Shown piece after piece: positions 2,501-29,600 of a stretch of 64,000 bases of DNA. The DNA is from an uncultured bacterium. Lineage in GTDB: Bacteria; Muiribacteriota; Ozemobacteria; Ozemobacterales; Ozemobacteraceae. The translations under genes and the position numbers were made by a program. The notes below the pieces were generated by a model. It had not been told where the DNA came from. It ran no database searches and saw nothing but the letters and a program-made list of their open reading frames with translations. Positions within the stretch are counted from its first letter, which is position 1. Each line of letters starts with the position of its first letter. The stretch spans positions 135,460 through 199,459 of the forward strand of contig CAZQUE010000001.1 of assembly GCA_964596185.1 (NCBI GenBank), read 5' to 3'.

Positions 2501-2609
2501 TCACCCCCGGTAGCCCGAAAAAGTTCGTTAATTGTTAGGGTTTTCTACATTATTGTCTGCAACCCTGTTTGACAATTTTTTTCCTTTTCTATATTCTTTA
2601 CCAATCCAA

Positions 2610-4849: not shown

Positions 4850-7093
4850 TTGTTGCGATTGCTTCCAATAGACAAAAAGACCGGGATTTTTCTGGTTTCG
4901 TTGCTTTTGATTCTGGCTTGCTCCTTAACGATGTTCTATTCAGACTACCTTTTCCAAACTTCTGAAAGATCCCAGTATGTGACCAGAGATTCCGATTCGA
5001 TCTTTTTCATGCGTTTGTATGAAAAAGCAATCAATACAGGAAAAATCTCGCAAAAGGACTATTACGGCTCTTTTCCTGATGAACTGGAAATCAAATACCC
5101 ACCGTTTCATTTAAGATTTTTGCTTGAAATCAGCTATTTTCTGATGATGTTTTTGCCGGAAAAATGGTGGGGGATTGATTTTCTTATCGGTTGGATCCCG
5201 CCTTTCTTTGGTTGGATGATCGGCCTGCTGATGATTTTTTATACCTGGAAGAAAACCGGAAATAAAGGACTTACGTTAATGGTTGCCTTTGCCTGCATTC
5301 CCGGCAGAATCGCGGCGATGAGTTCGTTGTTTCTCAAGATAGATTATGATTTTCTGATAAATCTTTTTATCTGGGTCTGGGTTGTCGGTGCAGCAATGTA
5401 TTGTCCAGACAAAAGCCGCTTCTGGCAGTTTGCCGGAACAATTTCATTATTATTGTTTATTTTTACCTGGGGCGGGGTTCCACTATTTTTCTCGGTTGTT
5501 TTCATTTATTCTTTGTTTTTGCAGATTGTTAACCGACAGCTTGGCCAACAATTCGCCGAATATGCCAAATCAACATTTTTTCTCTCTTGCCTGGTGGCGT
5601 TGGTCTACGTTTTATACTCCGGAGAAAAGACCCTGAATATTGGTTATCTTGGTCTCTTCCAACCATTGTTTGGCCTGGCGGTTGCAGTTCTTCTGGTGGT
5701 TTTTGAAAAACTCTTCAGAAAAGAACCTGGAGCAGAGAGCAAAATTGCGCATTACCTTGCAATTGCCACTTTGCCATTGATTGCAATACTGGCAGCATTT
5801 TTCTTCCGTGACCAGCTTAGCAGTGGTTTTTCATTTCTGTTTAACAAAGATCCGCACATGCTCTCGGTGGGTGAACTGCAGCCAATAATCAGCTTTTCAG
5901 AATTGATCAAGGATAGAGATATTTTAATTTCTGCTCTTTATCGATTAAGTCTGATGTTTTTCTTCTTTCCATTGATTTTTTTGGCCAATCCAGGCCGTAT
6001 TTTTTCCGGAGAAGGCCGTTTCGTTCGGGACTTTGCCATTCTGTTTCTGCTCATGGGCTGCTATTCTGTCAGATATTTTCGTTGGGTTGGCCTGGTAATA
6101 GGGTTTTTGAACGGTTTGATCCTGTTCGAGCTGTTTTTAATTTTTTCCCGCCGTTTCTGCAATTCAGAAAGAAAATATGGCCGGCTGTTGCTGATCGTTC
6201 CTCTGATGGTTTTACATTTCGTTTTGAGCTATCCCGTATTTTCAAGAACTGCAGGGATTAAAAAAGCTAATTTGCAGGCTTTGACCTGGATAAATGAAAA
6301 TACTCCACCCACCAGCGGTTACTATGACGAGAAAAGGCCTGAATATTCGATTTTCGCGGTCTGGAGCTACGGGAACCAGATAAATTATTATGCAAGAAGG
6401 CCGACGATTGTAAACAATACCATGGCCGGTTTTGGAAAAATGTCCAGATTGATTACTGCTGAAGATGAAACTCAGGCCTATGAATTATGCAAAAAATACG
6501 GAGTCAGATACTTTTTTATCGATGCCAAATATAGATTGACAGATGAATTGGTTAAATTCATGCAGGTCTATGCGAAAAAAGTAGATGAAAAAGATGTCGT
6601 TTACCGTTTTATCGATGATTCTCAAGAAAGCACGACCCGTTCCAATGGTTTAAAGGAGTCTTTTTATTATTGGTTGGGCAGCAAGCTGGCAATGGAAAAA
6701 AGCTTCAATTTTCCTCAGGCCGCATCGAGATTGCGAATCGTTTATTGCTATGAATACTATTCCGAAAAAATTCCTCCGGAGCATTTGATTTTTCAGCTTG
6801 TTGAAGGCGCAAAGCTCACTGGTAAAGCTGATGCAGGAACCAAGGTCCGTATCGAATTGGATTGTCAGTTTTTCGCGATCAAGAGAAAATTTGTTCAGGA
6901 AACTATTGTGGGTGAAGATGGAAGATTTGAGGCTACTGTTCCTTACTCAAATGGATATAAAAATGGATTTGTGTTTACCGGGCCGAACTATCTGATAACC
7001 AGAATGGTTGAGGGTAATACCGAGAGCAAAGAAGTTCAGGTTTCTGAAAAAGCGGTTATTGATGGTGACCGTATATTGCTGTCGGAACTTTGA
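4850..7093 (+). CDS. Polytopic membrane protein, putative STT3-like oligosaccharyltransferase family (paralog B)
   Basis: This is a tandem paralog of the previous gene, roughly 35-40% identical by eye. Shared blocks include YGSFPD..YPPFH, GW(L/I)PPFFGW, NTPPTSG, YYA(Q/R)RPTIVNNTM.G.GKM and AASRLRIVYC.EY. The WWDYG-equivalent reads AVWSYGN. TTG start at 4850 with an AAGAGGA SD, 17 nt after the stop of paralog A. Confidence 0.5.
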   Translation: MLRLLPIDKKTGIFLVSLLLILACSLTMFYSDYLFQTSERSQYVTRDSDSIFFMRLYEKAINTGKISQKDYYGSFPDELEIKYPPFHLRFLLEISYFLMMFLPEKWWGIDFLIGWIPPFFGWMIGLLMIFYTWKKTGNKGLTLMVAFACIPGRIAAMSSLFLKIDYDFLINLFIWVWVVGAAMYCPDKSRFWQFAGTISLLLFIFTWGGVPLFFSVVFIYSLFLQIVNRQLGQQFAEYAKSTFFLSCLVALVYVLYSGEKTLNIGYLGLFQPLFGLAVAVLLVVFEKLFRKEPGAESKIAHYLAIATLPLIAILAAFFFRDQLSSGFSFLFNKDPHMLSVGELQPIISFSELIKDRDILISALYRLSLMFFFFPLIFLANPGRIFSGEGRFVRDFAILFLLMGCYSVRYFRWVGLVIGFLNGLILFELFLIFSRRFCNSERKYGRLLLIVPLMVLHFVLSYPVFSRTAGIKKANLQALTWINENTPPTSGYYDEKRPEYSIFAVWSYGNQINYYARRPTIVNNTMAGFGKMSRLITAEDETQAYELCKKYGVRYFFIDAKYRLTDELVKFMQVYAKKVDEKDVVYRFIDDSQESTTRSNGLKESFYYWLGSKLAMEKSFNFPQAASRLRIVYCYEYYSEKIPPEHLIFQLVEGAKLTGKADAGTKVRIELDCQFFAIKRKFVQETIVGEDGRFEATVPYSNGYKNGFVFTGPNYLITRMVEGNTESKEVQVSEKAVIDGDRILLSEL

Positions 7094-7106
7094 ATAATTG
7101 ATTGAT

Positions 7107-9779: not shown

Positions 9780-9790
9780 TTCGATGCGCC

Positions 9791-14128: not shown

Positions 14129-15139
14129 TTAGAACTGTTTTGATGCAGAGATTCTATGCGCGTCTCCCAGAGTTTCGTCGGCGTAGGAATAATCAAAACG
14201 CCAGGTATCGAGCTTGAAGCTGGCACCAAGAGTCAGGTCGCCGTCGTGGGCACCGAGTCTCAGAGCGGCATAGTCCTGTACCCAGTATTCTGCGCCGGCA
14301 TAAAGCTTGGCATCCATGTCTTCAACCTTGTTGATGTCGGCGGCGATTGTAAGCTTGTCATTGGGCTTATGGGCAACACCAACCTGAAGGGTGGTGGGAA
14401 CGCTATCAGAATGTCCTGAAGCTGTATCCCATTCGAGAGATTCACCAATGTCGCGAACAGACAGACCCAGAGTCGTCTTTTCGTTGGCTTCATAGAGGAA
14501 GCCGAGATCGAGGCCGAAACTGTCTGCCGAGTTGGTAAACAGATCCTGGCTCAGATATTTGAGGTTGATACCACCATACCAGCGATCAGCCAGTTTTTTG
14601 GCGTATGAACCGAAAGTTGCTTTTTCAGAATCATCGAAGTAGCTGAAAATGTAAACTGATTTACCGGGAGAATAAGTCCCGTCAGGATTGGTAGCCGGAA
14701 GATCCGTTCCTGCTGGAATCGCTGTTCCATCAAGAGTTGCAGGGGTGTTGCCTGTGCCATAAGTAGTGGCAAGCCGTGTTTCAGGAATACCATCAACGCC
14801 GAATCTGATGTGAGACAGGGCGACAACGCCATTGTCTTTGCCATCTTTGCCTTTAAGCGGATGCGCGTAGTTGAAGAAGTTGTATTCGCGATCCATGCTC
14901 AGGTCGGCGTGCATGAAAGAGCCTTCAGCCTTTTTCAGTTTGGCGAGTCCGGCCGGATTCCAAAACGCGGCGGTAGAGTCGTCGGCCAGTGCAGTGAATG
15001 CACTGCCCATGCCCAGAGCCCGGGCACCGACACCCATTTTCAGATATGCTCCCGCCTGGCCTGCGGATTCAGCAAAGGCAGTGCTCATGGTGCCTACGCT
15101 AAGAGCCACGAGGAAGAGAGTCTTTAAAACCTTTTTCAT
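14129..15139 (-). CDS. FadL/PorV-family outer-membrane beta-barrel protein
   Basis: Signal peptide MKKVLKTLFLVALSVGTMSTAFA. The FadL-type N-terminal hatch motif is present (GVGARALGMGSAFTALADDSTAAFWNPAGLAKL). The body has alternating-hydrophobic beta-strand character and ends in C-terminal ...ASKQF. I trimmed the start to ATG 15139. Confidence 0.55.
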   Translation of the reverse strand: MKKVLKTLFLVALSVGTMSTAFAESAGQAGAYLKMGVGARALGMGSAFTALADDSTAAFWNPAGLAKLKKAEGSFMHADLSMDREYNFFNYAHPLKGKDGKDNGVVALSHIRFGVDGIPETRLATTYGTGNTPATLDGTAIPAGTDLPATNPDGTYSPGKSVYIFSYFDDSEKATFGSYAKKLADRWYGGINLKYLSQDLFTNSADSFGLDLGFLYEANEKTTLGLSVRDIGESLEWDTASGHSDSVPTTLQVGVAHKPNDKLTIAADINKVEDMDAKLYAGAEYWVQDYAALRLGAHDGDLTLGASFKLDTWRFDYSYADETLGDAHRISASKQF

Positions 15140-15244
15140 ATTGTTTCCCCTTACGAGTCGATAGAACTGGTTATCTATCATTTCGGCAGCTGACTTGATT
15201 TTCTGAACGATAATTTAACTATTTTTGAAAAAAAGTTTTTTCAA

Positions 15245-15940
15245 TTAGATACCGGTCAGTCCAAGATCGAGCAGTGATTTGTAAATTTGCGCAACTGAGC
15301 TGTCATTAGAACTGTCTTCAGCTCGGGCAACGTTGATCTGTGATCGTGCTTTGTCCTGGTCACCCAGTTCGTTGCGCCAGAAATAACAGAAGGCCAGCAT
15401 TGCATGTGCTTCGGCATTGCTGATGCCAATGTCGTGAGTTGATTGGAACACGAAAGCGGTGTTGTTCAGACCTATTTGTTCCAGCACTTGAATCGCCTGT
15501 TTGAATCCTGCCAGTTGTCCGCGCTGAATCAGTGCGGAGGCCAGACCGATACGGGCTTCATTGTTGGTTGAGGCGGCCTGAGTAAAGGCTGAATAACCGG
15601 ACTCAACCCCTGAAGATTTGGTCAGTGCCCAGCCCAGACCATTATATGCGTGAGATTTCTGGTCATCGCTGATATTGCTGATCGTCAAAACTTCATTGAA
15701 TTTGTTTATTGCACTGCTGTAAGCGCCATAACGGAAGTCTTCCCATGCAGAAGCGATCAATGAGTCTGGATCAGTTTCACCGGTGCCGCCGGTTCCACCT
15801 GTTCCACCAGTGCCGCCGGTTCCCGGAGTCGGAATTTCGGGCGGAATGGTGTAACGTCCGCTGCCACCGCCGCTGCCGCAGCCGCTGGCTATGAGTATGA
15901 CAATGCCGATGGTAAACAGCACCAGTAGTTTTCTGTTCAT
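15245..15940 (-). CDS. Lipoprotein with (GTG)n linker and TPR-like domain (cassette 1)
   Basis: MNRKLLVLFTIGIVILIASGC is a lipobox. A GTGGTGGTGGTGGTGE linker precedes a TPR-like helical domain. The C-terminus SVAQIYKSLLDLGLTGI is shared with the 25913..26692 paralog. GGAGA SD. Starts 8-26 nt after the giant ORF stop. Confidence 0.6.
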   Translation of the reverse strand: MNRKLLVLFTIGIVILIASGCGSGGGSGRYTIPPEIPTPGTGGTGGTGGTGGTGETDPDSLIASAWEDFRYGAYSSAINKFNEVLTISNISDDQKSHAYNGLGWALTKSSGVESGYSAFTQAASTNNEARIGLASALIQRGQLAGFKQAIQVLEQIGLNNTAFVFQSTHDIGISNAEAHAMLAFCYFWRNELGDQDKARSQINVARAEDSSNDSSVAQIYKSLLDLGLTGI

Positions 15941-15966
15941 TTTGCTATCTCCAATCATATTCGCTA

Positions 15967-18900
15967 TCAGCGCAACACGGCGATTTTGTGCGTGTATTTA
16001 GCTTTTTTGCTCCAGTTGTCGGGATCTCTGACCGTAATCCTGGCGAAGTAAACGCCATTGGCAACCTGTTTGCCACCCGTTGAGCGCAGATCCCAGAGCA
16101 CATCCTGAACCTGCAGCAAACCGTTGGTTCCGGTTCTGATACTGAGGTTGTTCGAATCAGCGACCTTGTGGCCGGCGACATCGTAGATTTTAACTTCGAT
16201 TTCGCCCCAGTCGACATCAGGTCGATTGGTGCTGATGCGCAGATTTACCCGGGTTCTTGCCGGATTCGGGTATTGATTCACTTCGTAAATGACCAGCGGT
16301 GGCAGAACCTGGAAGCGCAGTGCCGGAGTGACAAGCTGATTGCCTGCTTTGTCGGCCAGCCGCAGCGACATTTCATATTCTCCACCGATCAGATCTTCGG
16401 TCGGAATGAAGCGTGCCATCTTGCCGCTTTCGTCAAACATAACCGGATAGGCTCGGTTGTTCATGATTACCTGACCTTTGGCTAAATCGATTCCTGAACC
16501 CAGTTCGTCAATATTCCAGACGAATGATGGTCGCGGTTCGCGAATCGGTTTATCGGCTTCAATCTTGGTAAGCATGTTGGCGCGTGGTGCAAGAACGTCT
16601 TTCATTATTGCAAAGGTGCCGGGTTCGTTGGCGAAGAATTCGATCTCGCCATCTTTCAGACTGTAGGCGACAGGCTTCCAGCCAAGGCTGAGATCGCTGC
16701 GATACAGGCCGGTGCCGGCTTCGAGCTGCTCGGTGCTGAGCTTGAAGTTGGCTTTGATGTTGCCGGCAATTCTTCCGGCCGCAATGTTGATGCTGTATGC
16801 AGTGCCAACCGGAATCAATTCTTCGGCGCTCTGGCCATCGGTTGCCGCGCTGGCTCTTATCGAACTGACCTGAGCTCTGGTAAGCTCGGCCATTACCGAA
16901 GGAACGATCATGGCAGCTCTGGTTTCGCTGGTGGGCACTTTGCTCAACTGCTCAGGCACGATGGCGACCAGGCTGTTTTCTTTGAGGGTTCCCGGTTCGA
17001 ACAATGCGGTGAAGTTGCGGTCTGGCGACTGCAGCGAGGCTCGCATCGAGGCATTGACGAAGGCCGTTGAGAAGCTCATGTTCGCGGTTCCGGTATTCGT
17101 AGAGATGTCGGTGGCGGTGACCTTGATCGTTGCCACGCCTGGGTAATTCATGTCGAGATGAGCGCCGCCGATGAAGATGCGATTGGTCGGGCCGGCATTG
17201 AGAACCAGCGATACGGCGGTTCCACCACTCTGGGTGATGACAGCTGTCGGAGCTCCTGACAAATCTTCATTTGAGCTGACGGCGATGCTGAAATCGAATT
17301 CATTGGCCGGGTTGCTGAATGCTGTGATGGTCAATACCGGCGGTGTGATGTCCTGACCCTGGAAGGTAACCCGGGCCAGTGAACTGTCGCTCGGGTTGCC
17401 GAAGAGATCTTCCACTCCAGAGGCGACGATAGTGTAGTTTCTGGTTTCAACGATGTCGTCATAAGCCGTGATCGTTACCGATTTCAGATCCGCACGCAGG
17501 CTTACCGACTCGATCGCAATTGTGTCGGTGCCGCTGGTGAGGTTGTAGTTGCCAACCTGCTGTGCGGTAATGTTCTCGATCTGTTCATCGAAGACGATAT
17601 TGAATTTTTTCTGAGAATTCAGACCGTCATAAGTGATCGCTGTAATGATCGGGCCAAGAGTGTCGGCGGTAAACAGTCCGGTGTTGTTGCCGGAAGTGAT
17701 CGGATCATCGTCGATACTTCTGAAACCCGGGTTAACAGTCAGGGTGTAGTTGGTGTTGTGAGTAAGTGGGTAGGTGAGCGGTATTTCGACGGTGTTGTCG
17801 TTTACGGTTATCGGGGTTACTGCACCGATGCCGACCGGAGTGGCCGGAGACAGGCTGTAATTGCTGGGTATTCCAGCATCAGCAGGATTGACCGCGTGGC
17901 TGAAAGTGACCCTGATATGGTCTTTGTCGATCTGCGCAACACTGGTAACCTTGAATACGGAGTTCACAACGGTGATGTCTTTGGTAACATCGGTGGATTC
18001 GTTTCCGGCCAGATCGGTTACCGACAGTTTGTATGTGCCGTCGACGACTGGCTGTCTGTTTGAATCCTTGCCATCCCATTCAACTTTGAACGGAGTCGCG
18101 GTTTCTTCAAGCAGCAGCTCGCGAACCAGCGAGGAGCCGGTGGTAATTCTTACCAGTGCGGTTCCAGAACTGACGCTGGCGTCGTTACTGCCAACTTCTA
18201 TTCGCAAAGGTGTGACGTTTGGATTGAAGCGGTTCACTTCATTGCCGTTGTCGACACGATATGTTCTGATATCGATTATAGATGGGGCTGTGCGGTCCAT
18301 GACCAGGGTTCCGGTAGCTATGCTGCCGACACCAAGAGGATCGCCGATATTGCCGGCATAATCGACGATGTTAACCATGTATTCGCCGTCGACAAGTGTG
18401 CCTTGCGGAGAGTTGGTGTCTTTGCCGTCGAAGCTGATGGTATAGCCGCCGCCACTCAGACCGGTCATCGGATAAGTGTCGGTCGAGAGGCCTGGGTTAA
18501 CCAGTCGCATTTTCAAGGCATCGCCTGAAGCAGGTCCGAAGGCATCGATCTTGGCAAAAGAACTGACCAGCGGGCTGAAATAGGCTTTGTTGTTGTAGGT
18601 TCGCACGTTACTGAACCGCCATGAAGTTACAACCGGAGCTTTGCCATCATATACGATGCTGCCGCGTTTGCTGGCTTCATTGCCGGCGTCGTCATAAACC
18701 CTGAGAACATAGGTTGTCGGTCCGGATTCGCCTACCAGGGTGCCACCAATGGTGCCATCCCAGTTGGCAGTGCCGGTAAGACCGCTGACTGTTATTGGCA
18801 GTGATTCTCGCAGAGCGTCGCCCTGGAAAATTTGCAGCCAGAGACTGGTTGCCAACGGCGCAGTCTGGAAGTTGATTGTAACTGTCGCGATTCCAGGGGC

Positions 18901-21900
18901 AACGTATGGGCTGAAGGGTTGATTATTCACGTCACCTGAAGGTGAAGTTAATTTTGCAGTGGTCGACTGATAGGTTGAAACGACGAATGAGTCGATGTTT
19001 GGCCCTTTTGACCTGATCTGCAGCTGACTTGGCAGGGCGACTTCGTTGTTGCCGCGGTTGCCGGCCTCATCATAGCCACCGGAAACGTAGTAGGTATAAG
19101 TGCCTTGCGGGGTATTGGCATCAAAGTTGGCAGAGTTGGTAAACCTTGCGGTGTAAGAATCCACCCATGACTGGAAAGTGAAGGACATAACGGTGTTAAG
19201 GCCATCACCAAGTCGCAGTTGCGGCTGGAAGCCACTGCCAACTGTCTGATCCATGGGTTCGTCGAAGGTTACTTCGAATTGCGCTGAATTTGCAGGAGTT
19301 ATACCGATCGTGCCGGTGGGAATTGCCGACAGCGGCACTGGCAGTTGATTGTCGAGCATCAGTGTGTAGCTTGCATTCTTGAAACCATTGACCGAATTGT
19401 CTTTGTCGCTGAGATTGTAAGAAAGCGAAGCTGTGTCGGTGTAGGTTGTCGGGCTGAAAACATCGGCATAGCCGCTGACTTCAACAAAACATGGTCTTCT
19501 TTGCAGATTTGAAGCGGTAAGGTCGCTGTTATTGGCAAATCTGGCTACAGTCCTGGTTATACCACCCTGAACATGATCGAGCCAGGCGATGAAGGTCGCG
19601 GTATCCTTGGGATTGACCTGATCATCCTGAGTGAAGAGTTTCAGGGTTGGAACCTTGGTCCTGTCTATGGGTATGTAGACATCTGCAGAAAGAGTTGCAG
19701 TGTTGAACGCTACTTCATAGTAGAAGTTGCCGACCGGTTGCCCTTTGCAAAGCTGAATCTGCTGAGCTGAAATCGATTTGGCCGGAGTGACTGCCAGGGT
19801 TTGGATTGCCGGGGGGGCAATGATCATCGGGAAAGTGACATTGATGATTTTCTGGGCAGTGCCACCCTGAACCGGGTAGCGAATGCTGCCATTGCCCCAA
19901 AGGTCGACGAACGCGCTTTCTGAACAGGCAATGAAGAATTCACTGGTTCCCCAGCTGAGCATGGTTCTGAGAGCTTCCGAAGTCAGCGGGATGGTTACCA
20001 CGTTCGAGGCATAGTCGGTGTTGTAAGTTTTGTAGGCAGTGTAATCAACCATCGTCTGGTTCAAGGGAATCGAACCATCGGTCAGGTCTGATTTGGCATA
20101 GAGATAGATTCTTGACAGGTCAACCGGCAGGTCACGGCTGAGTTCAATCGTTTCGGCCAGGTTTTTGTAAGGATCGAGATAAAGCCGGGCGCGTCTGAGG
20201 GGTGCTTTCTGGAATTCAATCTTGAGGAGCGGCTGTGCGCCTGAAAGATCGAGAGAAATTGCGCCATCGTCAATGGAGAATTGGCTGTTGAGAGGAATAA
20301 GAGTTGCCGGAGTCGCAACGGTGTAGTGAATCGGCATTACTCTATTGCCTTCGAAGTCTCTGATCAAAGGATCCGGATCGAATGGATCGGGTGGTTCATA
20401 CTCGGTTCCATTCACCTGCAGATGGAATTGTGCGCCGGTTCGGCCGTAATTAAGCGCGATCCAGTCTTTGGCTTGTTGCGAGAGCAGAATTTTCAATCTT
20501 CTGATGTCCATGTCGAATACCGCGTCGGGCGCAGCAGCAGTAATGAAGCGGTAGCGATTGGCATAGGTGTCAGAAGGATTGCCGCGGTTTTTCCAGATGG
20601 AAAGGTTGCGCAAGCTGTCATTGGTTATCGAGTTGGGATCCATATCCTTGTCGAAGTCGACATAGAGATAATCGGATTCAGAGGGCACATTGGCATTGTA
20701 ATAGCCGGTAACCAGCTTGGGTCTGGTCGTATAAACCGTGGGAATATTGACACTGGTGCTGGCAAGAGTTCTGGGCAGGGGCTGCAGCCAGTTGCCCGCT
20801 TCATCGAGAGCGATTGGATCATAGGTGTTCGGGGTTGCTTCACCGTTTGTCGTGCTGTGAGCCACCGAGATGTAGAGGTTGGTCTGGCCCCAATCGGCGA
20901 CAATCGCTTTGGTGCCGGTAGAAAGCATGACCTGAATCCGGTCGCTTGGGTAGGATTCGAAGATCGTGTCGTTGACCGGGTCAAGTGCTCTTGCTGCTCC
21001 GGGAATCTGAATGTCGTCATGATCCATTTTGCTGCCAATGCGAACCTTGTCGAGGTTCGTCTGAAAGAGTATTGGATCAATGGTTTCGGTAAAGTTCATC
21101 GTGAGAATGCGACCGTCATAACTGGCCGATTCAAGGCGCGGGCGAGTTGTATCGACGGCGAGTTCGTGATCGACGTATGTGTAGTTACCGGCGCCGTCGC
21201 GAACGTAGATTCTGAAGGTTCTGGTCGCCAAATCGAAGGTATTGGTTGCCAGTTCCATCGGCAGTGAATAGACTGTCAGCGGATTCTGAATCTGAGTCAG
21301 CTTATAGGTCGAGGTTGCTTCGATTTGTGAGAAGTCGACGAAGGCCATGCCGTTGCCGGTGACGTCGCCGGTATTGGTAACCGTTACCGAAGCCACGATT
21401 CCGTCGGGTGCGACTCGGTCACCTTCGCTTGGTCGGTAACCATCGCCAACGTTGGCGGCCCAGTTCTGCAGGTTGCGATTTTCGACGCGCAGATTAGAAT
21501 CGGTGATGACCGGAGGATCGTTGTCGATGGTGAAAGTAGCCAGCTTGAGTGCGCTGCTGACAATGTTCTGGGCATCGTCAGAAGCATAAACTCTGAATCT
21601 GGGGGTTTCACCATTCATTGCCGGCCAGCCGGTAATGGTTGTCGTAGCAACTCTGAACATACCTTCCCAGATTTCAGTGCCGGGCAGGTTGTAGATCGGA
21701 GTTCGGAAAGCTTCGGTGACGTTGTCGGCCCGATAGAGAATGAAGGTCGCTGAACCCGGGTCATCGAATTTCTTGATTTCGGTTCTTACGTAAAGAAGAT
21801 CGTCGATATTGATGCTGTTTGAAGCAATGTTGTCTTCATTTTCATCAAGAACCGAAAGAATAATGTTCTGTGGGTCAGGTAGCTTGGTGTCGACACCGAA

Positions 21901-24900
21901 TGGCGAATCTGGGTCGCAGGTAATGGTGGTAGATGCGAGAATGATCGAGCTTGCATCAGGATGCAGAACTCTTACGCCGAAGCTGGCAATCGGAGTGTCA
22001 ACGTTTCCGGCACTTACTGTGAAAGTGTCGCGATATACATAGTTTCCGGCTCCGCTGATCGGGAAAGGCTGGTAGGTCAGCGGGGTCCAGTAGGTTTTCA
22101 TGTCGCCGTCATAGTATGCCGAGTTGGCATCATCGGCAGAGGCGCTGGTGATACTGCGGATATCAGCCAGAACTGTTGCCGGCGGAGCATTGTCGGCGCT
22201 GTAAAGCGAAGTCATTACTACGGTCAGGGTGACCTGGTCGCCGGGATTGGCAATCTGGTTCTGCTCCCAGCTCGGCACAGCATCCAGGCTCAGATCGGCT
22301 CTTGATTGCGGATAAGATGCAAAAGTCGGGGTTTTCGACAGGAATCTTATTGAATTGGTATAGCCGTATTTCATGTTGCCCGAGGCGTCATAAGCGAGAA
22401 TGGTCAGCGAGCCAACCGTTCCGAGACCTTCGGGAACGGTCCATTCGTAAACGTATTCGCCCAAAACCGGCGGCGGGAACAGAGTCGGGCCAGGAGGTGT
22501 CAGACCATTCGCCAGATAAAGATTGGTGAAATCGATCATCGGGAGAATGTCGTCGTTATTGGTGACTCTCAGTCTTATCTGAATAACGTCATTGAGATTG
22601 GCCTCGTTGAGGCGGCCCTGATCGACAACGAAAGCGATCGGGTAAATTTCAAGTTTTGGCGGGCTGTTATCGATAAAGACTTTGGTTGTCGTGGTCTGAA
22701 CGATTTCGTTGCCGTTAACATCGGTAAGTTTGATGTTGAAGGCGGTTTCTTCGTTATTGGTAGAACCCGGAATGGGCATGTAGTCAGCGGTTGCTATCCA
22801 GCCGCCGGCAGTTGAGGTATAAGGAATCTGTCGGGCAGTGTCGTTGATGCCGAGTTTGGTCAGATCAACGGTGGCGGTGCCCATGTCTCCGGTATTACCA
22901 GAAATGTTGATTTCGATTCTGACGACGTCGGTAGCTACGCTCGGATAGGTGGTATAAATACCATCGAGGTCGACGATGGTATTGCCATTGTTATCGTAAA
23001 CCTGGGTAACGGTGCAGGTATTGATCGTCAGAGGTTTATTGTCGACGAACATTGCTTCGGTAGAGCCCAGAGCACGGTTGCCGGCGTTATCCGTCAACTC
23101 AACGGTGAGCGAAATGGTTTCGCCATCGGTAGAGCCTTCGGTTACTGTGTGGGTGTAACCGTAAATGCCGTCGTTGGCAAGATTGTCGTTGTGTGCGCCA
23201 TCGTCATAAAGAACCTGCGCTGAGTTGCCGCCGAGGGAAGTAAGATTTACCATCGGGGTGCCGCCATCGACGCGGGTCAGGTCAGCCTTGGCGGTTATAG
23301 TAACTTTATCACCGATGTTTACTACACCGGTTTTGCCCTTGAGTTCCTGAACAGTTGCTGAAGCATACATGATCACTGGCGGTCGACAATCGACTTCGAA
23401 GGTGCTCGACAGCGAATTCATGGTATTGCCGGCTTTATCGGAAACGATGGCTCTGAAAACATAGCTGGTGCTTTCCATGGCTGCTTCTGCGCAGTCATGC
23501 ACCAGATAATATCTGAGCAGCACCGGATCGTAATTCATGATATAGCCGCTGGGGCCACCGACATACGAAAGATCGATGGTGCAGGTTCCGGAATCGGGAT
23601 CGGTTACGGGTACGATTATTTCGAGACGGTCGCCGATGTTAACGACTCCTGATTTGTTCAGGTCGGTCATATAGTTGATTGCCATCGGTCCGACATCTGG
23701 TTTCTTGTTGTCGATGTGGACGTAAATTGTGTTTGAAACGGCGTTTCCGGCGTTGTCTTCAGCCTGATAGGTGAAGTAATGGTCGTCATTGAGGTCGCCG
23801 TCGGTAACATCGACGGTTACCGTGTAGGTTCCGACGCCATCATAAACCATGTTCACCGGAGTGGTCTGACCGAATTCGGTAAGTGAGACTTTAACCGTTT
23901 CCTGGTCATGAACAGAAGCAGCGGCGCTCGCAAGTTGCACGAAGAAACTTAAGCGGTCATTGATTCGGACGTATGGGTGAGTTGCTGAAATGGCGGGTGA
24001 CGAAGTGTAACGACTGCCGAGAATTTTGGGCATTTCGTTGTCGATGCTGATTGTGTTCGCAACGGTATAAACGGTATTACCGGCATCATCCGCGGCATAA
24101 ATGGTGAAAGCGACGTTCTGGTCATAGAATGTGCCGACAGTCGGGTCACCAACCGTATGGTCGAGGCGATAAATCGTGCCGGAATAAGGTGACAGGGTGC
24201 TGCTGGCTGTGCCGCCAATTCTTTCGAAATTGGTCCAGATACTGCCGCCGTCAATATTGGCCAGAGTGGCCTGAATGGCGATCTGATCACCGTATTTTAC
24301 GGTTTTGCCAGGCCTTGATACGTTCTGGGTTTGTCCGGCGCTGATCGTCGGCGGATAGTTGTCTACGTAAAGAATTGGCAGAACGACCTGACTGATCTGG
24401 TTGCCGGCAGTGTCTTTTGCAGTAACCGTGAAAGCTCTTGGGGTAGTGTTTTCTGAGGTGAACTGATGAATGTCATACCAGAGTTCAAATGTAGTGGTTG
24501 CACTATTATTGAACGGGATGATCTGATTTGGAATTCCACCGATGCCGCTTAGGTCAACGGTTATTACGACATCGTTCATCAGGCTGGAAAGGTTGCCGTA
24601 GAAGTGCAGCTGGTCGCCGATGATAGCGATGTTGTCGTTGGGAACACCGCCTTTTTCAACCATTTCTACGCCAAAGGGCAGGGCGAATTCGGGCGGAATA
24701 TTGTCAAGAGCAAGAGGGTTAGAGTTTCTCGGCGAACTTTCGTTGCCGACATCGTCAGTGGCTCTAACTTCAAAGGTGATGAAGTTGCTCTGAACGTCGG
24801 GAACATCGGCCAGATAATAGTCATACTGGAAAGTAGCTTCCGAGCCAACTGTTCCAGCTGTGCGGATCATGGTGATACCGGCCGGGAAAAGTATTGGATG

Positions 24901-25749
24901 AGTGACGACGACTTTGTCATAGTCGTATTTGTCGATTACAGCCTGAATTCTGATTGTGTCGCCTGAGGTAACCCAGGATTTGCCAGTGGTCATGTTTACG
25001 GCAGTTACAGATTGAATTTCAGGTTCGACTGTGTCGTAGTTAACTGAAAGATCCCACTGACGGGTGTTGCCGGCATCATCTGTGGCCGATACGGTCAGAG
25101 GAGTAGCGGTGCCTTCACGGTTGTTGGGAAAAGTAAGCGAGAGCTGGTAAACCGGAGCTGAGTCCGGGCCGCCGACGCGAGAAAAAATATGGCTTGCGCC
25201 CAGACCGATGCTGGTAAGATTGGCTCTGGGGATGTCGCCATCGAGCGAGCTGTTCATGGTGATATCGATCTGAATGTTGTCACCAATTTTGAAATAGCTG
25301 CTGGTACCGGTTCCACCGGTAACGCTCGGACCATATTGTGAAAAAGGCCTTCTATTGTCTATCAGTAAGCTACCGCCAACTCTGACACCATCTTCGTCAG
25401 AAAATTGGAATGATTGGGCAGTATTGTTTTCCACGTTACCGGGCGAAACGGTCAAAAATGCGGAGTAGAAGTTACCGGCGATGTTTGGCAGAGGGAAATA
25501 GGGGTTGCCGAACTGGCTGAGGTTGACGAACGGATACTGGCTTGTATCGGTAGTTGTCGAGCGACAACTGAAAGTGATCGTGTCGCCAATACCGGCAATG
25601 CCGTCGCCGTTCAAGTCTGAAGACAATACGGCTACCTGGTTGGATACTAGTGCCCAACCTGATGTGATTGTACCCAGAAGCAGGTATAGTATCAATATGC
25701 TTCTGAATACCCTGTTGATAAATTTTCTGTCTGCCTTTTTGATCGCCAT
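15967..25749 (-). CDS. Giant (3260 aa) secreted cadherin/Ig-like repeat surface protein with T9SS C-terminal sorting domain
   Basis: N-terminal signal peptide. There are more than 20 modules separated by cadherin-like linkers xIDNxPPxI (ALDNIPPEF, YVDNYPPTI, HIDNKKPDV, TIDNDPPVI...). The C-terminal ~90 aa (...YPNPARTRVNLRIS...VKIYDVAGHKV...WDLR...GKQVANGVYFARI...KIAVLR) matches the T9SS CTD (Por_Secre_tail-like). GGAGGA SD. Confidence 0.85.
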   Translation of the reverse strand: MAIKKADRKFINRVFRSILILYLLLGTITSGWALVSNQVAVLSSDLNGDGIAGIGDTITFSCRSTTTDTSQYPFVNLSQFGNPYFPLPNIAGNFYSAFLTVSPGNVENNTAQSFQFSDEDGVRVGGSLLIDNRRPFSQYGPSVTGGTGTSSYFKIGDNIQIDITMNSSLDGDIPRANLTSIGLGASHIFSRVGGPDSAPVYQLSLTFPNNREGTATPLTVSATDDAGNTRQWDLSVNYDTVEPEIQSVTAVNMTTGKSWVTSGDTIRIQAVIDKYDYDKVVVTHPILFPAGITMIRTAGTVGSEATFQYDYYLADVPDVQSNFITFEVRATDDVGNESSPRNSNPLALDNIPPEFALPFGVEMVEKGGVPNDNIAIIGDQLHFYGNLSSLMNDVVITVDLSGIGGIPNQIIPFNNSATTTFELWYDIHQFTSENTTPRAFTVTAKDTAGNQISQVVLPILYVDNYPPTISAGQTQNVSRPGKTVKYGDQIAIQATLANIDGGSIWTNFERIGGTASSTLSPYSGTIYRLDHTVGDPTVGTFYDQNVAFTIYAADDAGNTVYTVANTISIDNEMPKILGSRYTSSPAISATHPYVRINDRLSFFVQLASAAASVHDQETVKVSLTEFGQTTPVNMVYDGVGTYTVTVDVTDGDLNDDHYFTYQAEDNAGNAVSNTIYVHIDNKKPDVGPMAINYMTDLNKSGVVNIGDRLEIIVPVTDPDSGTCTIDLSYVGGPSGYIMNYDPVLLRYYLVHDCAEAAMESTSYVFRAIVSDKAGNTMNSLSSTFEVDCRPPVIMYASATVQELKGKTGVVNIGDKVTITAKADLTRVDGGTPMVNLTSLGGNSAQVLYDDGAHNDNLANDGIYGYTHTVTEGSTDGETISLTVELTDNAGNRALGSTEAMFVDNKPLTINTCTVTQVYDNNGNTIVDLDGIYTTYPSVATDVVRIEINISGNTGDMGTATVDLTKLGINDTARQIPYTSTAGGWIATADYMPIPGSTNNEETAFNIKLTDVNGNEIVQTTTTKVFIDNSPPKLEIYPIAFVVDQGRLNEANLNDVIQIRLRVTNNDDILPMIDFTNLYLANGLTPPGPTLFPPPVLGEYVYEWTVPEGLGTVGSLTILAYDASGNMKYGYTNSIRFLSKTPTFASYPQSRADLSLDAVPSWEQNQIANPGDQVTLTVVMTSLYSADNAPPATVLADIRSITSASADDANSAYYDGDMKTYWTPLTYQPFPISGAGNYVYRDTFTVSAGNVDTPIASFGVRVLHPDASSIILASTTITCDPDSPFGVDTKLPDPQNIILSVLDENEDNIASNSINIDDLLYVRTEIKKFDDPGSATFILYRADNVTEAFRTPIYNLPGTEIWEGMFRVATTTITGWPAMNGETPRFRVYASDDAQNIVSSALKLATFTIDNDPPVITDSNLRVENRNLQNWAANVGDGYRPSEGDRVAPDGIVASVTVTNTGDVTGNGMAFVDFSQIEATSTYKLTQIQNPLTVYSLPMELATNTFDLATRTFRIYVRDGAGNYTYVDHELAVDTTRPRLESASYDGRILTMNFTETIDPILFQTNLDKVRIGSKMDHDDIQIPGAARALDPVNDTIFESYPSDRIQVMLSTGTKAIVADWGQTNLYISVAHSTTNGEATPNTYDPIALDEAGNWLQPLPRTLASTSVNIPTVYTTRPKLVTGYYNANVPSESDYLYVDFDKDMDPNSITNDSLRNLSIWKNRGNPSDTYANRYRFITAAAPDAVFDMDIRRLKILLSQQAKDWIALNYGRTGAQFHLQVNGTEYEPPDPFDPDPLIRDFEGNRVMPIHYTVATPATLIPLNSQFSIDDGAISLDLSGAQPLLKIEFQKAPLRRARLYLDPYKNLAETIELSRDLPVDLSRIYLYAKSDLTDGSIPLNQTMVDYTAYKTYNTDYASNVVTIPLTSEALRTMLSWGTSEFFIACSESAFVDLWGNGSIRYPVQGGTAQKIINVTFPMIIAPPAIQTLAVTPAKSISAQQIQLCKGQPVGNFYYEVAFNTATLSADVYIPIDRTKVPTLKLFTQDDQVNPKDTATFIAWLDHVQGGITRTVARFANNSDLTASNLQRRPCFVEVSGYADVFSPTTYTDTASLSYNLSDKDNSVNGFKNASYTLMLDNQLPVPLSAIPTGTIGITPANSAQFEVTFDEPMDQTVGSGFQPQLRLGDGLNTVMSFTFQSWVDSYTARFTNSANFDANTPQGTYTYYVSGGYDEAGNRGNNEVALPSQLQIRSKGPNIDSFVVSTYQSTTAKLTSPSGDVNNQPFSPYVAPGIATVTINFQTAPLATSLWLQIFQGDALRESLPITVSGLTGTANWDGTIGGTLVGESGPTTYVLRVYDDAGNEASKRGSIVYDGKAPVVTSWRFSNVRTYNNKAYFSPLVSSFAKIDAFGPASGDALKMRLVNPGLSTDTYPMTGLSGGGYTISFDGKDTNSPQGTLVDGEYMVNIVDYAGNIGDPLGVGSIATGTLVMDRTAPSIIDIRTYRVDNGNEVNRFNPNVTPLRIEVGSNDASVSSGTALVRITTGSSLVRELLLEETATPFKVEWDGKDSNRQPVVDGTYKLSVTDLAGNESTDVTKDITVVNSVFKVTSVAQIDKDHIRVTFSHAVNPADAGIPSNYSLSPATPVGIGAVTPITVNDNTVEIPLTYPLTHNTNYTLTVNPGFRSIDDDPITSGNNTGLFTADTLGPIITAITYDGLNSQKKFNIVFDEQIENITAQQVGNYNLTSGTDTIAIESVSLRADLKSVTITAYDDIVETRNYTIVASGVEDLFGNPSDSSLARVTFQGQDITPPVLTITAFSNPANEFDFSIAVSSNEDLSGAPTAVITQSGGTAVSLVLNAGPTNRIFIGGAHLDMNYPGVATIKVTATDISTNTGTANMSFSTAFVNASMRASLQSPDRNFTALFEPGTLKENSLVAIVPEQLSKVPTSETRAAMIVPSVMAELTRAQVSSIRASAATDGQSAEELIPVGTAYSINIAAGRIAGNIKANFKLSTEQLEAGTGLYRSDLSLGWKPVAYSLKDGEIEFFANEPGTFAIMKDVLAPRANMLTKIEADKPIREPRPSFVWNIDELGSGIDLAKGQVIMNNRAYPVMFDESGKMARFIPTEDLIGGEYEMSLRLADKAGNQLVTPALRFQVLPPLVIYEVNQYPNPARTRVNLRISTNRPDVDWGEIEVKIYDVAGHKVADSNNLSIRTGTNGLLQVQDVLWDLRSTGGKQVANGVYFARITVRDPDNWSKKAKYTHKIAVLR

Positions 25750-25842: not shown

Positions 25843-25878
25843 ATAAAAAAAGGCCGGGGCGCGTTAACGCACCCCGGC
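25843..25878 (-). terminator. Rho-independent terminator between the two adhesin cassettes
   Basis: GC-rich hairpin ggccggggcgcg-ttaa-cgcaccccggc (25852-25878) with a plus-strand A-run at 25843-25851. On the minus strand that is a T-run following the hairpin, downstream of the lipoprotein stop at 25913. Confidence 0.55.
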
Positions 25879-25912: not shown

Positions 25913-26692
25913 CTATATACCGGTCAGGCCGGCTTTTTTCAATGTGTTGTAAATCTGGGCAACCGAAGAGGTCGAAGAGCTGTCGGCGCTTCTGGCAGCG
26001 AGAATCTGGGCTCTGGCTTTGTCGTCGTCGCCGACATTGCCGCGCCAGAAATATGCGTATGCAGTCATGGCGTGAGCTTCTGCCGAGCTGATTCCGATTG
26101 AAGTATGTTCCAGAGTCAGCAGGTAGCTCGGGTCACCCAGGCCTATCTGCTCAAAAATATCGACCGCCTGACTGACCGAAGAGGTGGTGCTTTGTTGAAC
26201 CAGGCCCATGGCATAACCAAGCAACGATTCCGGCAGACTTCCGGCCTGCATGAAATCTGACATACCCGACATGGTGTCGTAGTTTTTGACCTTGGCCCAG
26301 CCGCGGCCATTATAAGCCTGCTGGCGTTGTTCGGTTGTGGCGTTATTGTCCCCAAGGACGCTGTCGAAGTAAAGAATTGCTCCGCTCCAGTTGCCGTAAT
26401 CCATGGCTGACCAGGCGTTGGTAAGTTTCTGGGAAACTGTTGTGCCGGTGCCTGTACCCGTTCCAGTCGATGTGCCCGTGCCTGTTGAGGTTCCGGTTCC
26501 TGTTGAGGTTCCTGTTCCTGTCGAAGTTCCAGTGCCGGTGCCCGTTATGATCGGGCCGGTGGGGTTTTCGCCCGGCAATATTTGACGACCGCTGCCGCCA
26601 CCCCCACCACCGCAGCCAATCGTCAGAACAATGGCGGCGCACATCAGTGAGAAAAAGATACTGAGAAATGTATATCGCTGTTTTTTTTGCAT
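25913..26692 (-). CDS. Lipoprotein with (GTGTS)n linker and TPR-like domain (cassette 2)
   Basis: Lipobox LTIGC. Gly-Thr-Ser repeat GTGTGTSTGTGTSTGTGTSTGTGTSTGTGTGTGT. Paralog of the 15245..15940 lipoprotein. The start codon sits 3 nt after the giant ORF stop. Confidence 0.6.
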   Translation of the reverse strand: MQKKQRYTFLSIFFSLMCAAIVLTIGCGGGGGGSGRQILPGENPTGPIITGTGTGTSTGTGTSTGTGTSTGTGTSTGTGTGTGTTVSQKLTNAWSAMDYGNWSGAILYFDSVLGDNNATTEQRQQAYNGRGWAKVKNYDTMSGMSDFMQAGSLPESLLGYAMGLVQQSTTSSVSQAVDIFEQIGLGDPSYLLTLEHTSIGISSAEAHAMTAYAYFWRGNVGDDDKARAQILAARSADSSSTSSVAQIYNTLKKAGLTGI

Positions 26693-26695
26693 GGA

Positions 26696-29600
26696 TTACC
26701 TCAATATCGCAATCTTGAAGGTTTCTTTAACCTTTTTCGAGGGGTTGTCAGGATCTTTGATTTCGATTCTGGCAAAATATACGCCGTTGGCGACCAATTT
26801 GCCGGAAGCGTTACGCAGATCCCACGGAATGTCATACAGGTAGCGGGCATTGATTCCCCATTTTTCGTTTACTGGCTTGATGCCATCGAGTGTCGCAACT
26901 CTGTGGCCGGCGACATCGTAAATCTTGACTTTAACCAGATCTTCACTGACATCGCCACGGTTCGCACTGATTCTGATGAAAGTTCTTACTCTGGCCGGGT
27001 TAGGATATTGGGCTATCTGGGTAATCTGTAACGGGACGACCACTTCGAATCTTACTGCAGTCATCGCAGAATCGTTGCCGGTGTTGTCTTTGGCTCTGAT
27101 GACCAGGTCGTGCCAGCCACCGGTAAGATCGGCCATGGGCTTGAATGTGAAATTGCCGCTGTTGTCGACAGTTACATTCTGAGCCGGGCCTGAATCAATG
27201 TGGGCAGTAACCGTAGTTATATCGAGGCCTGATCCGGCGTCGGTGATTTTGCCCCTGAATTCCGGGCGAGGGGTGCGGAATGGTTCATTAAGGTCGATGT
27301 CGGCAGCCAGGGCTACTTCAGGGCCCTTAACGTCACGCAGAATGGCAAAGAGCTGGGTTGAAGCCGCTTTGGCTGCGAAGCTGCTGCCCCGGGTTGGTTT
27401 CGCAGTCAGGAATTTCCATTGGTCATTGGTCTGATAGAACAGGCCCAGCCCGGTAGTTGAAGTTGCTTGCGGAATTTCGACGAAGACATTGAAGCCTTCT
27501 TTTACTTTTTCTGCCGCAATTGCGACTTCATAAGCCATACTGACCGGCTTGAGTTCAGTCTGATCGATGGCCGAGGCCTGAGTTTGGCTGGCTCTGAGAC
27601 CGAGGGCAAGACGGGCCTGCTGCTGCAGGGCAGTTCTAATCGAGGTGCTGGTTTCGTTGCCAGCTTCAAGGCGATGGCCCATGATCTTGAACATGGCATT
27701 GTCCTTGAGGCTGCCGGTCGAGAATTCAGCGACAAGTTTTTCATCAGCTGATTTTACCGATGCAACCTTATTGGCACTCAGATATGCTACGGCAAAGGTC
27801 GAGTTGCCGCTGCCCTGGTTGCCGGCCAGATCCTGGGCCGTTGCCACGAGAGTGCCATTGCCCGGATAGGATGGGCTGAGATGAACCCCAATCATGAATG
27901 AGCGACTGTTGGCTCCCTGCTGCATGTTAGTGGTAATAACCGGAGCATTGCTTTGGGCTATCTGCAGCACTGGTGGAGCTTTCAGATCTTCATTGCTGAC
28001 GACGACGACGATTATGTCGCTTTCGTTAGCCGGGTTCGAGAAGGCGGACACTTCGAGAACCGGTGGCGTCAGGTCGCGACCCTTGAAGTTAATACTGTTC
28101 GGGCTTGGCGACAGGTTGCCATAAACGTCTTCGATTCCGGTTACCGAAATCTGATAATCGGCGTTTTCAATCAGATTGGAAGCTGCAGTCAGCAAAACAG
28201 TTTTGGTGTCTGCCTGAGTTGTGGCGGCTGCGATGGCCAGCGCACCACTTGGGCCGGTCAGACTGTATTTGCCGATGTCGCCGGCAGTAGCAGGCTTGTA
28301 ACTTTCATCGAAAACCACTTTGAATTCCTGCTGTCCCGACAGGCCGGAGAAGTTAACCGAAGAGAGAACGGGGCCTTGTCCGTCGGCAAGCATCGGGGCT
28401 GTATTGTTTGGCGCGGCAATCCCCGCTCCATAAATGCTGCTGATAGTGCCTGGAGTTGCCTGGAATTCATAGGTTGCCTGATGTGCAAAATTTGGAGTCA
28501 CGCTGAAGCTTACTGCCTGAGCTTCTATTTTCTGAATGTTGCTGATGGTCAGGCCGGCAGCAGTGATGGCCGCGCCGGCAAGATTGGCATCAACTTCATG
28601 GTTGAAAACGAGTTTGGCAGTCGAAGAACTTATCTGCACTGCACCGACAACCTTGAACGGAGTGGTCAGGGCAAAAATGCTGATGCTGATATTGGCTGGG
28701 TTGCCGGCATAATCAGTTGCCCTGAAACTGTAGGTTCCATCGAGAACTGTGCTGCCTGCAGAATTGGTGCCATCCCAGAAAGCGCTGAAGTAGGCCCCGG
28801 AATCGGTCAAAGGCAGCTGTTTGATTTTTATGTTTGAACTGTTGAGAACATCGACCCAGAAAATGCCGCTTTCTGAAAGCGTATCGGTAGATTCTACCCT
28901 GATTTCAAGATTGCCGGCCGCAGGCGAATAAGCGGTCACCGGGTTGCCGTTGACATAGGTGCTGTAAGTCGATACTGCCGGTTCAACCGTATCGATGATG
29001 ATGTTATACAGAATCGGGTCGCCCGATGCGAGCAAACCGACATTGCCGGCCTGATCAACCAGATCGAGGGAATAGATACCATCTGGCATCAGCGGCTTCG
29101 GATCGGTTCCGCGACTGTAGCGTCCATCGAAATTTCCGGCCCAGGTGTTGGCACCTGCGGCATTCAAAGCGTATGTGTCGGTCGAGTTGGCACCTCTTAT
29201 TCTCATTCTAAGCGCATCTGTGTCGACTGAATTGAACGAAACGTTCAGATAGCTTTGTCGAGATGGATTGAAATAGACGGAATCGGTAGCGACGGCGCCA
29301 CGGGTAACTGTCGGCAGATCGAGGGCGACCGGCGCAGAGGCATCAACGGTCCAGTCATAGGATTCAAGTGAGAAGTCACCTGAATCGTCGACCAGCTTTA
29401 TCTGATAGGTCGTCGGATAGATGGTTGGAACCGGACCATTGGTCAGCGACCAGGTAAATGTCGCTGATTTGCTTACGGCATCGTATGTCAGAGGATAAGA
29501 AGCCACGGTAACGCCGCTTTGCATGAAATGCAGATTGATTGGCAGAGCGTCAGGATCCTGGCTCAGGGTGACGGTTAGAGTCGCGGCGTTAGGTGCGACA

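Follow-up and report, generated by a model that had tools for sequence, protein, structure and literature searches.

We describe here two tandem genes for giant proteins, and the small genes that accompany them, on a 64,000-nucleotide stretch of DNA (hereafter the window) from an uncultured Ozemobacteraceae bacterium of the candidate phylum Candidatus Riflebacteria (GenBank assembly GCA_964596185.1, contig CAZQUE010000001.1, positions 135,460 to 199,459 of the forward strand). Read in the direction of transcription, the gene for giant 2 is followed by one for a small tetratricopeptide repeat (TPR)-like lipoprotein, then by the gene for giant 1, a second small lipoprotein gene which begins 8 nt past the giant 1 stop, and finally a gene for an outer-membrane beta-barrel of the PorV/PorQ family (Table 1). 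The subject of this report is the domain that closes both giants, a C-terminal tail resembling the C-terminal domains (CTDs) by which proteins are sorted in a type IX secretion system (T9SS), and its probable relationship to the barrel encoded downstream.

Table 1. Features of the giant/lipoprotein/barrel string, in window coordinates
Feature	Position	Strand	Description
PorV/PorQ-family FadL-type outer-membrane beta-barrel	14129..15181	-	350 aa if read from the first start codon; orthologues in databases have 312-336 aa
TPR-like lipoprotein 1	15245..15958	-	237 aa; lipobox ...IASGC; Gly/Thr-rich linker; helical domain of ~170 aa; TPR_19 match
Giant 1	15967..25749	-	3,260 aa; Sec-type signal peptide; mostly unannotated; Big_5, Big_13, Big_3_2 and FlgD_ig-like immunoglobulin (Ig) domains near the C-terminus
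Predicted C-terminal sorting/anchoring domain of giant 1	15967..16293	-	approximately residues 3153-3260 plus the stop codon
Terminator-like hairpin	25853..25878	-	between lipoprotein 2 and giant 1; 11 pairs, 10 of them G-C, then a T-run
TPR-like lipoprotein 2	25913..26692	-	259 aa; lipobox ...TIGC; begins 3 nt past the giant 2 stop
Giant 2	26696..40579	-	4,627 aa; paralogous to giant 1; signal peptide MKRLSLLFFALIFSIFLFSAPVEA
Predicted C-terminal sorting/anchoring domain of giant 2	26696..27028	-	approximately residues 4518-4627 plus the stop codon

By inspection, both giants begin with a Sec signal peptide (that of giant 1 being MAIKKADRKFINRVFRSILILYLLLGTITSGWA). They are 34% identical across the last 1,190 aa and about 25% identical farther upstream, self-BLAST found no internal repeats in either, and orthologues of giant 1 (3.2-3.4 kaa) occur across Riflebacteria at 46-82% identity. 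The two lipoproteins are likewise paralogues (47% identity), each with a Gly/Thr/Ser-rich linker. The hairpin suggests a division of the string into two transcription units, one of giant 2 with its lipoprotein and the other of giant 1 with its lipoprotein and the barrel; it comes from a consensus scan in which the overall number of sites was no higher than in shuffled sequence.

The C-terminal tails of the giants

Both tails are encoded on the minus strand. Giant 1 ends in ...QYPNPARTRVNLRIS...VKIYDVAGHKVA...WDLRSTGGKQVANGVYFARITVRD...KKAKYTHKIAVLR and giant 2 in ...QYPNPARVRTFIRIS...VKIYDVAGHRVA...WDLRNASGKLVANGVYFARIEIKD...KKVKETFKIAILR, in each case directly followed by the stop codon, which places the domain at the extreme C-terminus. 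Counted from the YPNPA motif to the last residue, the tail is 101 aa long in giant 1 (nt 15970-16272, the motif starting at nt 16272) and 103 aa long in giant 2 (nt 26699-27007, the motif starting at nt 27007). A preliminary description of this DNA, made from the sequence without database searches, had written out a tail consensus, and the minus-strand translations of both giants match it as written. It had also put the tail at about 85 aa, which is too short, and its ranges (15967-16240 and 26696-26950) stop some 11 and 19 residues early and so cut off the YPNPA they quote; translated on the plus strand, those ranges are meaningless. The tails of the two giants are 54% identical to each other, and in six of six orthologue comparisons the last 113 aa were better conserved than the body of the protein (55-91% versus 45-81%). 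The tails as described are real, and their resemblance goes beyond chance.

Curated profiles were searched with isolated tails, taken as 144-aa C-terminal segments, and separately with the whole giants. The isolated tails both pass the T9SS sorting-domain model TIGR04183 (cut-off 23 bits), giant 1 with 27.1 bits (E 3e-6) and giant 2 with 26.5 bits (E 5e-6). Against PF18962 (gathering score 27 bits) the tail of giant 1 reaches 29.6 bits (E 8e-7) and that of giant 2 only 22.6 bits (E 1e-4); the PF18962 alignment covers no more than model positions 2-38 of 75. Searched whole, giant 1 falls under both cut-offs (TIGR04183, 21.1 bits; PF18962, 26.1 bits) and giant 2 is reported by neither model; it is because of the score corrections applied to whole proteins that the giants sit just under the curated thresholds and stay hypothetical proteins. 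The type B model TIGR04131 did not list the tails even at E values up to 10, and the type C model NF033708 gave 12.2 bits, under its cut-off of 40. Within NCBIfam the isolated tails match best to the PorU model NF033707, at its C-terminal end (66 and 63 bits, E 2e-18 and 1e-17), where the alignment spans positions 960-1093 of 1095. With a whole giant the same model is matched over positions 941-1093, at 62.6 bits compared with the 420 needed and without the C25-type catalytic region (approximately positions 1-860). We considered the giants as candidate PorU homologues and rejected them, since only the last 135-160 positions of the model are matched.

The preliminary description had called these tails canonical T9SS CTDs and had named a search with TIGR04183 or PF18962 as the check. 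Significant matches to T9SS CTD models were indeed found, with TIGR04183 for both isolated tails and with PF18962 for that of giant 1; the shortfall concerns PF18962 with the giant 2 tail, and both proteins when searched whole. The tails are best classed as a T9SS type-A-class sorting domain of a long, PorU-like subtype, for which 'canonical' is too strong a word.

Structural comparison points in the same direction. Among solved structures, a profile built from nine tail sequences found P. gingivalis PorU best (6ZA2, residues 1055-1147; E 4.7e-12), with PorZ next (5M11; E 0.023). An AlphaFold2 (AF2) model of the tail (pLDDT 82.9) is an all-beta sandwich of eight strands whose top Foldseek match is again PorU (6ZA2_B, TMq 0.67, 27% identity), all other matches being generic Ig folds. 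The model predicts an additional strand that lies between the KIYDVAG hairpin and the strand of GVYF, and this falls where PorU and PorZ each possess an additional hairpin. The CTDs cleaved from P. gingivalis cargo measure 67-88 residues, whereas the non-cleaved tails of PorU (108 residues) and PorZ (96 residues) carry the additional hairpin; the type A CTD fold is a compact Ig-like beta-sandwich of 3+4 strands (PMC11285876). Length and best match together thus suggest that the tails of the giants belong to the long, non-cleaved PorU class. With type A CTDs in general they share the extreme C-terminal position, the Ig-like beta-sandwich, the (Y/F)PNP start, the GxY strand (here ANGVYFARI) and a basic, hydrophobic end (KIAVLR); they differ from the cleaved cargo domains in length and in the extra strand, and from type A CTDs at large in a host outside the Fibrobacterota-Chlorobiota-Bacteroidota (FCB) group.

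A search of 1.84 billion representative proteins with the tail profile returned 12,951 at E ≤ 0.001 and 302 at E ≤ 1e-10. In 94 of the best 150 representatives the domain is flush with the last residue and ends K[IL]AVL[RK], and most of these 94 are themselves giants of 3,000-7,400 aa. Aligned with the PorU tails of other phyla, the family has in common with them (Y/F)PNP, KIY(D/T)xxG, WD(L/G), G(K/E)xVANGVYFA and a terminal K-x-A-x-x-(R/K). A search with this mixed alignment surfaced no Riflebacteria PorU; it returned short fragments that NCBI names either 'T9SS type A sorting domain-containing protein' (Bacteroidetes, Calditrichaeota, Chlorobi) or 'FlgD immunoglobulin-like domain containing protein'. 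JGI names them 'flagellar hook assembly protein FlgD', and for most of the fragments the precomputed Pfam matches include PF18962 together with PF13860. The tails do share the WD(G/L)..G..V..G.Y core of the FlgD Ig-like domain, but on PF13860 (FlgD_ig) they score 12.4 and 16.7 bits where the gathering score is 27, and nothing flagellar surrounds them. Where FlgD is given as the name of such tails it is an annotation artefact, and relatives of the tail are often misnamed in this way; together with the hypothetical status of the giants this marks a gap in annotation.

Conserved partners of the tail-bearing proteins

The barrel encoded at the end of the string falls in the PorV/PorQ family, scoring 132.3 bits on NF033709 (cut-off 90), with 125.8 bits for an orthologue at another Riflebacteria locus (L007). 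It lies under the equivalog cut-offs of NF033710 (PorV; 250 bits) and NF033711 (PorQ; 220 bits), with scores of 52.1 and 69.6 bits taken in that listed order. On NF033709 the barrels that accompany PorU-type sortases in KSB1, Calditrichaeota and Poribacteria reach 77-111 bits, and they miss the same equivalog cut-offs; because of this the two equivalog models appear to be tuned to Bacteroidota. The sole sequence match of the barrel in the PDB is F. johnsoniae PorV (6H3I_F). Its AF2 model (pLDDT 83.7) finds PorV first in Foldseek (8GL6_F, E 7e-13, TM 0.68; 6H3I_F, TM 0.65), ahead of FadL and TodX, so that the predicted fold is closest to 8GL6, in which PorV is part of a CTD/substrate-bound complex.

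Gene order was compared across 86 fetched loci by open reading frame (ORF) calling and hidden Markov model searches. Almost all tail-bearing proteins of Riflebacteria have a small TPR-like gene of their own after them, and so do both giants, a third tail-bearing protein of about 1,800 aa and, in one genome, a protein of 2,556 aa. About 20 Riflebacteria loci, the Ozemobacter lineage among them, keep the order giant, small lipoprotein, PorV-like barrel, with the barrel placed after the downstream pair of the giant tandem. Beyond the barrel, and likewise out to the Ozemobacter lineage, come genes for STAS, AroE, PilB, PilT, a pilin and a prepilin peptidase. At a locus of intermediate lineage (L063) the tail gene and the PorV-like gene lie 7.5 kb apart, with only small ORFs in the interval. 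In one Riflebacteria genome (L006) an inserted IS110-family transposase gene (8801-9826) separates the small TPR-like gene from the PorV-like gene and breaks the otherwise conserved string.

The third tail-bearing protein (L060, L062) passes TIGR04183 even at full length, with 37.0 and 31.2 bits. The further tail proteins of Riflebacteria (L060-L062 and L071, at approximately 4870-10300; the 2,556-aa protein at L061, 11141-18811) likewise pass it at full length, and each has its own TPR-like gene and no PorV-like gene within 10 kb. A natural fusion of TPR repeats to a PorV-like barrel occurs in P0153 (463 aa; L008, 10001-11392), in a neighbourhood without a tail-bearing giant, and supports a functional link between the TPR lipoproteins and the barrel.

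Three lines of evidence place the window in Candidatus Riflebacteria. Its PilB falls in one 90%-identity cluster with the PilB proteins from Candidatus Riflebacteria and Rifleibacterium metagenome-assembled genomes (MAGs), and homologues of the barrel at 60-90% identity are found in Rifleibacteriota and Ozemobacteraceae MAGs, where they are named PorV/PorQ family protein. In a scan of a single genome for each GTDB species, almost all tails at least 43% identical to those of the window came from Riflebacteria MAGs, a few of which bear species labels that are apparently wrong. The labels in question are Candidatus Methylomirabilis sp., Erysipelotrichia bacterium and Candidatus Avigastranaerophilus sp., and they look wrong for DYKG01 (L009/L062), SABV01 (L037), JAZRWI01 (L059) and protein GAB1352980.1, all of which carry loci or proteins of Riflebacteria type. 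In DYKG01 the giant/lipoprotein/PorV-like string is complete, and its tail shows 91% identity to that of the window. NCBI taxonomy lists Candidatus Rifleibacteriota among the unplaced candidate phyla, outside the FCB group.

Where tail identity falls to 29-38%, at loci of KSB1, Calditrichaeota, Poribacteria and further MAGs, the tail sits on proteins of 1,700-2,150 aa which also match the catalytic part of the PorU model, and a PorV-like gene follows immediately. Examples of these PorU-type proteins (L067, L078, L080) match NF033707 over positions 8-861 with 272-400 bits (E 1e-81 to 1e-119), under the equivalog cut-off of 420. The tail and barrel of Riflebacteria are thus homologous to the PorU tail and PorV as a pair, with the tail carried by a giant cargo protein instead of a sortase. 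Two large Poribacteria assemblies (L080, L085), which lie outside the FCB group, have a PorU-type sortase gene directly followed by one for a PorV-family barrel. An Elusimicrobiota MAG (L074) encodes a tail-bearing protein of more than 3,448 aa and then a PorV-like gene.

Proposed export and anchoring of the giants

Two kinds of known assembly bear on what these genes might do. The first is the PorU tail itself (6ZA2), which is the best match to the giants in sequence and structure, is of similar length (108 aa in PorU), and likewise has a PorV-family barrel encoded downstream; the giants differ from PorU in having no C25-type sortase region, in the TPR-like lipoprotein interposed between cargo and barrel, and in being structural cargo where PorU is an enzyme. 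The second is the anchoring of intact proteins on dedicated barrels. The 669-kDa SprB of F. johnsoniae is encoded beside its own FadL-family 14-strand barrel, SprF, and held by its intact C-terminal domain, and in the PG1035 complex of P. gingivalis the lipoprotein PorE, which has a TPR domain, binds the PorP barrel (PMC9143113). The triad of cargo, TPR lipoprotein and barrel has its parallel in the giants, although their tail is of type A/PorU-like rather than type B and their barrel is of the PorV/PorQ rather than the PorP/SprF kind. The lipoproteins of the window are also simpler: PorE is a multidomain protein, whereas at 237-259 aa they have no detected beta-propeller or peptidoglycan-binding (OmpA-type) domain.

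On balance, we lean towards a route in which the giants are exported by Sec, keep their tails, and are anchored through them on the PorV-like barrel with the lipoprotein acting as adaptor. According to this proposal the giants would be cell-surface proteins of many Ig domains which, once exported by Sec, cross the outer membrane through a translocon, for which there is no gene in the window. The tail would serve as both targeting and anchoring element. Past the outer membrane it would bind the co-encoded PorV/PorQ-family barrel, stay on the protein and anchor it non-covalently, while the TPR-like lipoprotein might serve the barrel in the periplasm as a cargo-specific adaptor or chaperone, in the manner of the TPR domain of PorE. 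For retention of a PorU-like tail on the barrel the precedent is that PorU and PorZ keep their tails in the PorU-PorV-PorQ-PorZ attachment complex, and for anchoring of an intact CTD it is that SprB is held by SprF and PG1035 by PorP-PorE (PMC9143113). What the data show is which domain closes the giants and where it sits, the family and fold of the barrel, the pairing of one lipoprotein with each cargo, and a gene order kept throughout the phylum; the binding of tail to barrel, the retention of the tail, the role of the lipoprotein and the nature of the translocon are all inferred.

The preliminary description had the giants exported through the type IX system and then cleaved or attached at the cell surface. 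The surface targeting is supported by the N-terminal signal peptides and by the PorV/PorQ-family barrel in the same conserved string. Tail cleavage and covalent attachment to lipopolysaccharide (LPS), on the other hand, find no support, with a PorU-type sortase seen at no examined Riflebacteria locus and in none of the 150 closest tail-bearing proteins. Export via the type IX system itself would be an inference, in a host outside the FCB group to which reviews confine the T9SS.

Several points weigh against the anchoring proposal. The third tail-bearing protein (L060-L062) has no barrel within 10 kb, and a barrel would have to be shared with it. A translocon is required, and none, whether SprA/Sov or another, was found in the DNA examined. 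That PorU is missing was concluded from about 1 Mb of redundant Riflebacteria DNA and from tail similarity only. In reviews the T9SS genes are said to be lacking beyond the FCB group, and either these statements are incomplete or the route differs in Riflebacteria. Lastly, in about 13 of the best 150 representatives the domain occurs as internal tandem repeats, in up to 15 copies (P0155, P0156, P0162, P0177, P0184 and others), so that the fold by itself is no proof of a sorting role; it also serves as a building block, although its terminal form makes up a class of its own that is strongly conserved. Some of the tandem-repeat relatives end PNPF(T/I)P.., as though cut at a repeat boundary.

The strongest competitor is that the giants are classical T9SS cargo, with a full system encoded elsewhere in the genome (SprA/Sov, PorKLMN, PorU, PorZ), PorV shuttling the giants to PorU, and the tail then cleaved and the protein released or linked to LPS. 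This would account for the TIGR04183 scores of the isolated tails and for the PorV/PorQ-family barrel; a CTD/PorV pair makes little sense without a translocon, and the PorU-type and PorV genes of Poribacteria show that the published phylum limits are not absolute. One point against classical export concerns the sortase. The PorU-type catalytic regions of three loci, used as BLAST queries, found no counterpart in any ORF of the Riflebacteria loci examined, nor among the 150 closest tail-bearing representatives. Eight of those representatives are of PorU size, and the Riflebacteria proteins of about 1,800 aa (L060, L062) are also candidates by size; both sets were rejected as PorU, the tail alone matching the PorU model. 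By precomputed Pfam matches, the neighbourhoods of PorV-like paralogues and of the TPR-PorV fusion (L008, L087, L088) contain no sortase, SprA or Gld/Por core genes. These negative searches argue, if weakly, against a PorU that is nearby or similar in its tail, and have no bearing on SprA/Sov or PorKLMN. The tails moreover fall by length and best match in the class that is not cleaved, and a literature search found no link between Riflebacteria and type IX secretion (nor anything relevant for T9SS with Poribacteria or Elusimicrobia). We therefore regard classical T9SS export of the giants as possible and somewhat unlikely.

A stronger variant of the anchoring proposal holds that Riflebacteria have neither the classical T9SS core nor its sortase, and that a stand-alone module of PorU-type tail, cargo-specific TPR lipoprotein and PorV-like barrel places the giants on the surface, alone or with some other translocon. 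This we consider doubtful. Less probable still is passage through a translocon other than SprA, be it the secretin of the adjacent type IV pilus and type II secretion-like genes or a route assisted by a beta-barrel assembly machinery (BAM) or a translocation and assembly module (TAM), with the attachment half of the T9SS alone being reused and export independent of it. The invariable sequel of STAS, AroE, PilB, PilT, pilin and prepilin peptidase genes after the Riflebacteria string would suit such a route, as would the lack of any T9SS core gene in the neighbourhoods examined and the restriction of T9SS genes to the FCB group in reviews; no secretin gene lies within the window, however, and the synteny with pilus genes may be coincidental. 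Type II secretion systems and type IV pili are also not known to export proteins of 3,000-4,600 aa.

We give very little credence to the remaining possibility, that the tail has a structural part only, as an FlgD-Ig-like domain closing a large protein of the surface or periplasm, with no sorting role and an incidental barrel nearby: the weak FlgD_ig scores, the generic Ig folds among the structural matches besides PorU, the tandem-repeat relatives and the presence of the same fold inside both giants (one internal domain of giant 2, residues 3909-3957, reaches 28.8 bits on PF13860, above 27) are outweighed by the flush and conserved terminus in most of the closest representatives, the greater conservation of the tail than of the rest of the protein, the PNP, WD, GxxVANGVYFA and terminal-K motifs held in common with PorU tails, the pass on the T9SS sorting-domain model, and a gene order with a PorV-family barrel that is kept phylum-wide.

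The domain comes from a known family, and in Riflebacteria MAGs the barrel already bears the name PorV/PorQ family. What departs from the known is the host phylum, which neither the literature nor NCBI taxonomy ties to the T9SS, together with the long PorU-type tail on giant cargo conserved across that phylum, the dedicated lipoprotein, and the failure to detect a sortase nearby. Should Riflebacteria prove to have a full T9SS, the stated phylogenetic limits of the system would need revision, and the PorU-type/PorV pairs of Poribacteria and the Elusimicrobiota tail-bearing giant beside a PorV-like gene point towards wider limits. Should they lack one, the giants would represent a simpler CTD/PorV route of surface anchoring, which would bear on the evolution of the attachment complex and on the means by which very large proteins arrive at the diderm cell surface. 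If the stand-alone module were true, recognition of CTDs by PorV would be older, or more mobile, than the full T9SS.

Other features of the window

Outside the string, the window carries genes for type IV pili, a cluster for chemotaxis, housekeeping genes and two oligosaccharyltransferases of AglB-like type. The latter are tandem AglB/STT3-like genes on the plus strand (2532..4832 and 4850..7093), about 9 kb from the giant/PorV string; they match Pfam AglB_L1 and AglB_core-like domains and score 107 bits on TIGR04154, under its cut-off of 450. The giants contain 1.2-1.3 N-glycosylation sequons per 100 aa, compared with 0.45 for the other genes; an enrichment of sequons was considered and rejected, the density being that expected from composition. 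In Tannerella forsythia the adjacent genes tfsA and tfsB encode large glycosylated S-layer proteins of about 120-140 kDa whose T9SS CTDs are cleaved. They offer a possible functional analogy for two tandem giants conserved across a phylum, layer formation or glycosylation of the giants being unsupported.

A sister contig (L001), otherwise 99% identical to the window, differs by a 573-bp indel just upstream of giant 2 (window approximately 40951-40960, L001 13197-13769), and the extra sequence in L001 holds a called gene of 228 aa. Also kept in the sister contig is an unannotated C-terminal extension of about 600 aa on a 1,162-aa PilB-type ATPase (45310..48798, minus strand) whose MshEN and T2SSE domains occupy residues 63-556. 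Within the cheA-cheW-cheB-cheR cluster, a minus-strand gene (54760..57564) encodes a methyl-accepting chemotaxis protein with a HAMP domain fused to the C domain of an Fe-only hydrogenase large subunit with 4Fe-4S clusters, a chemoreceptor which may sense redox state or H2.

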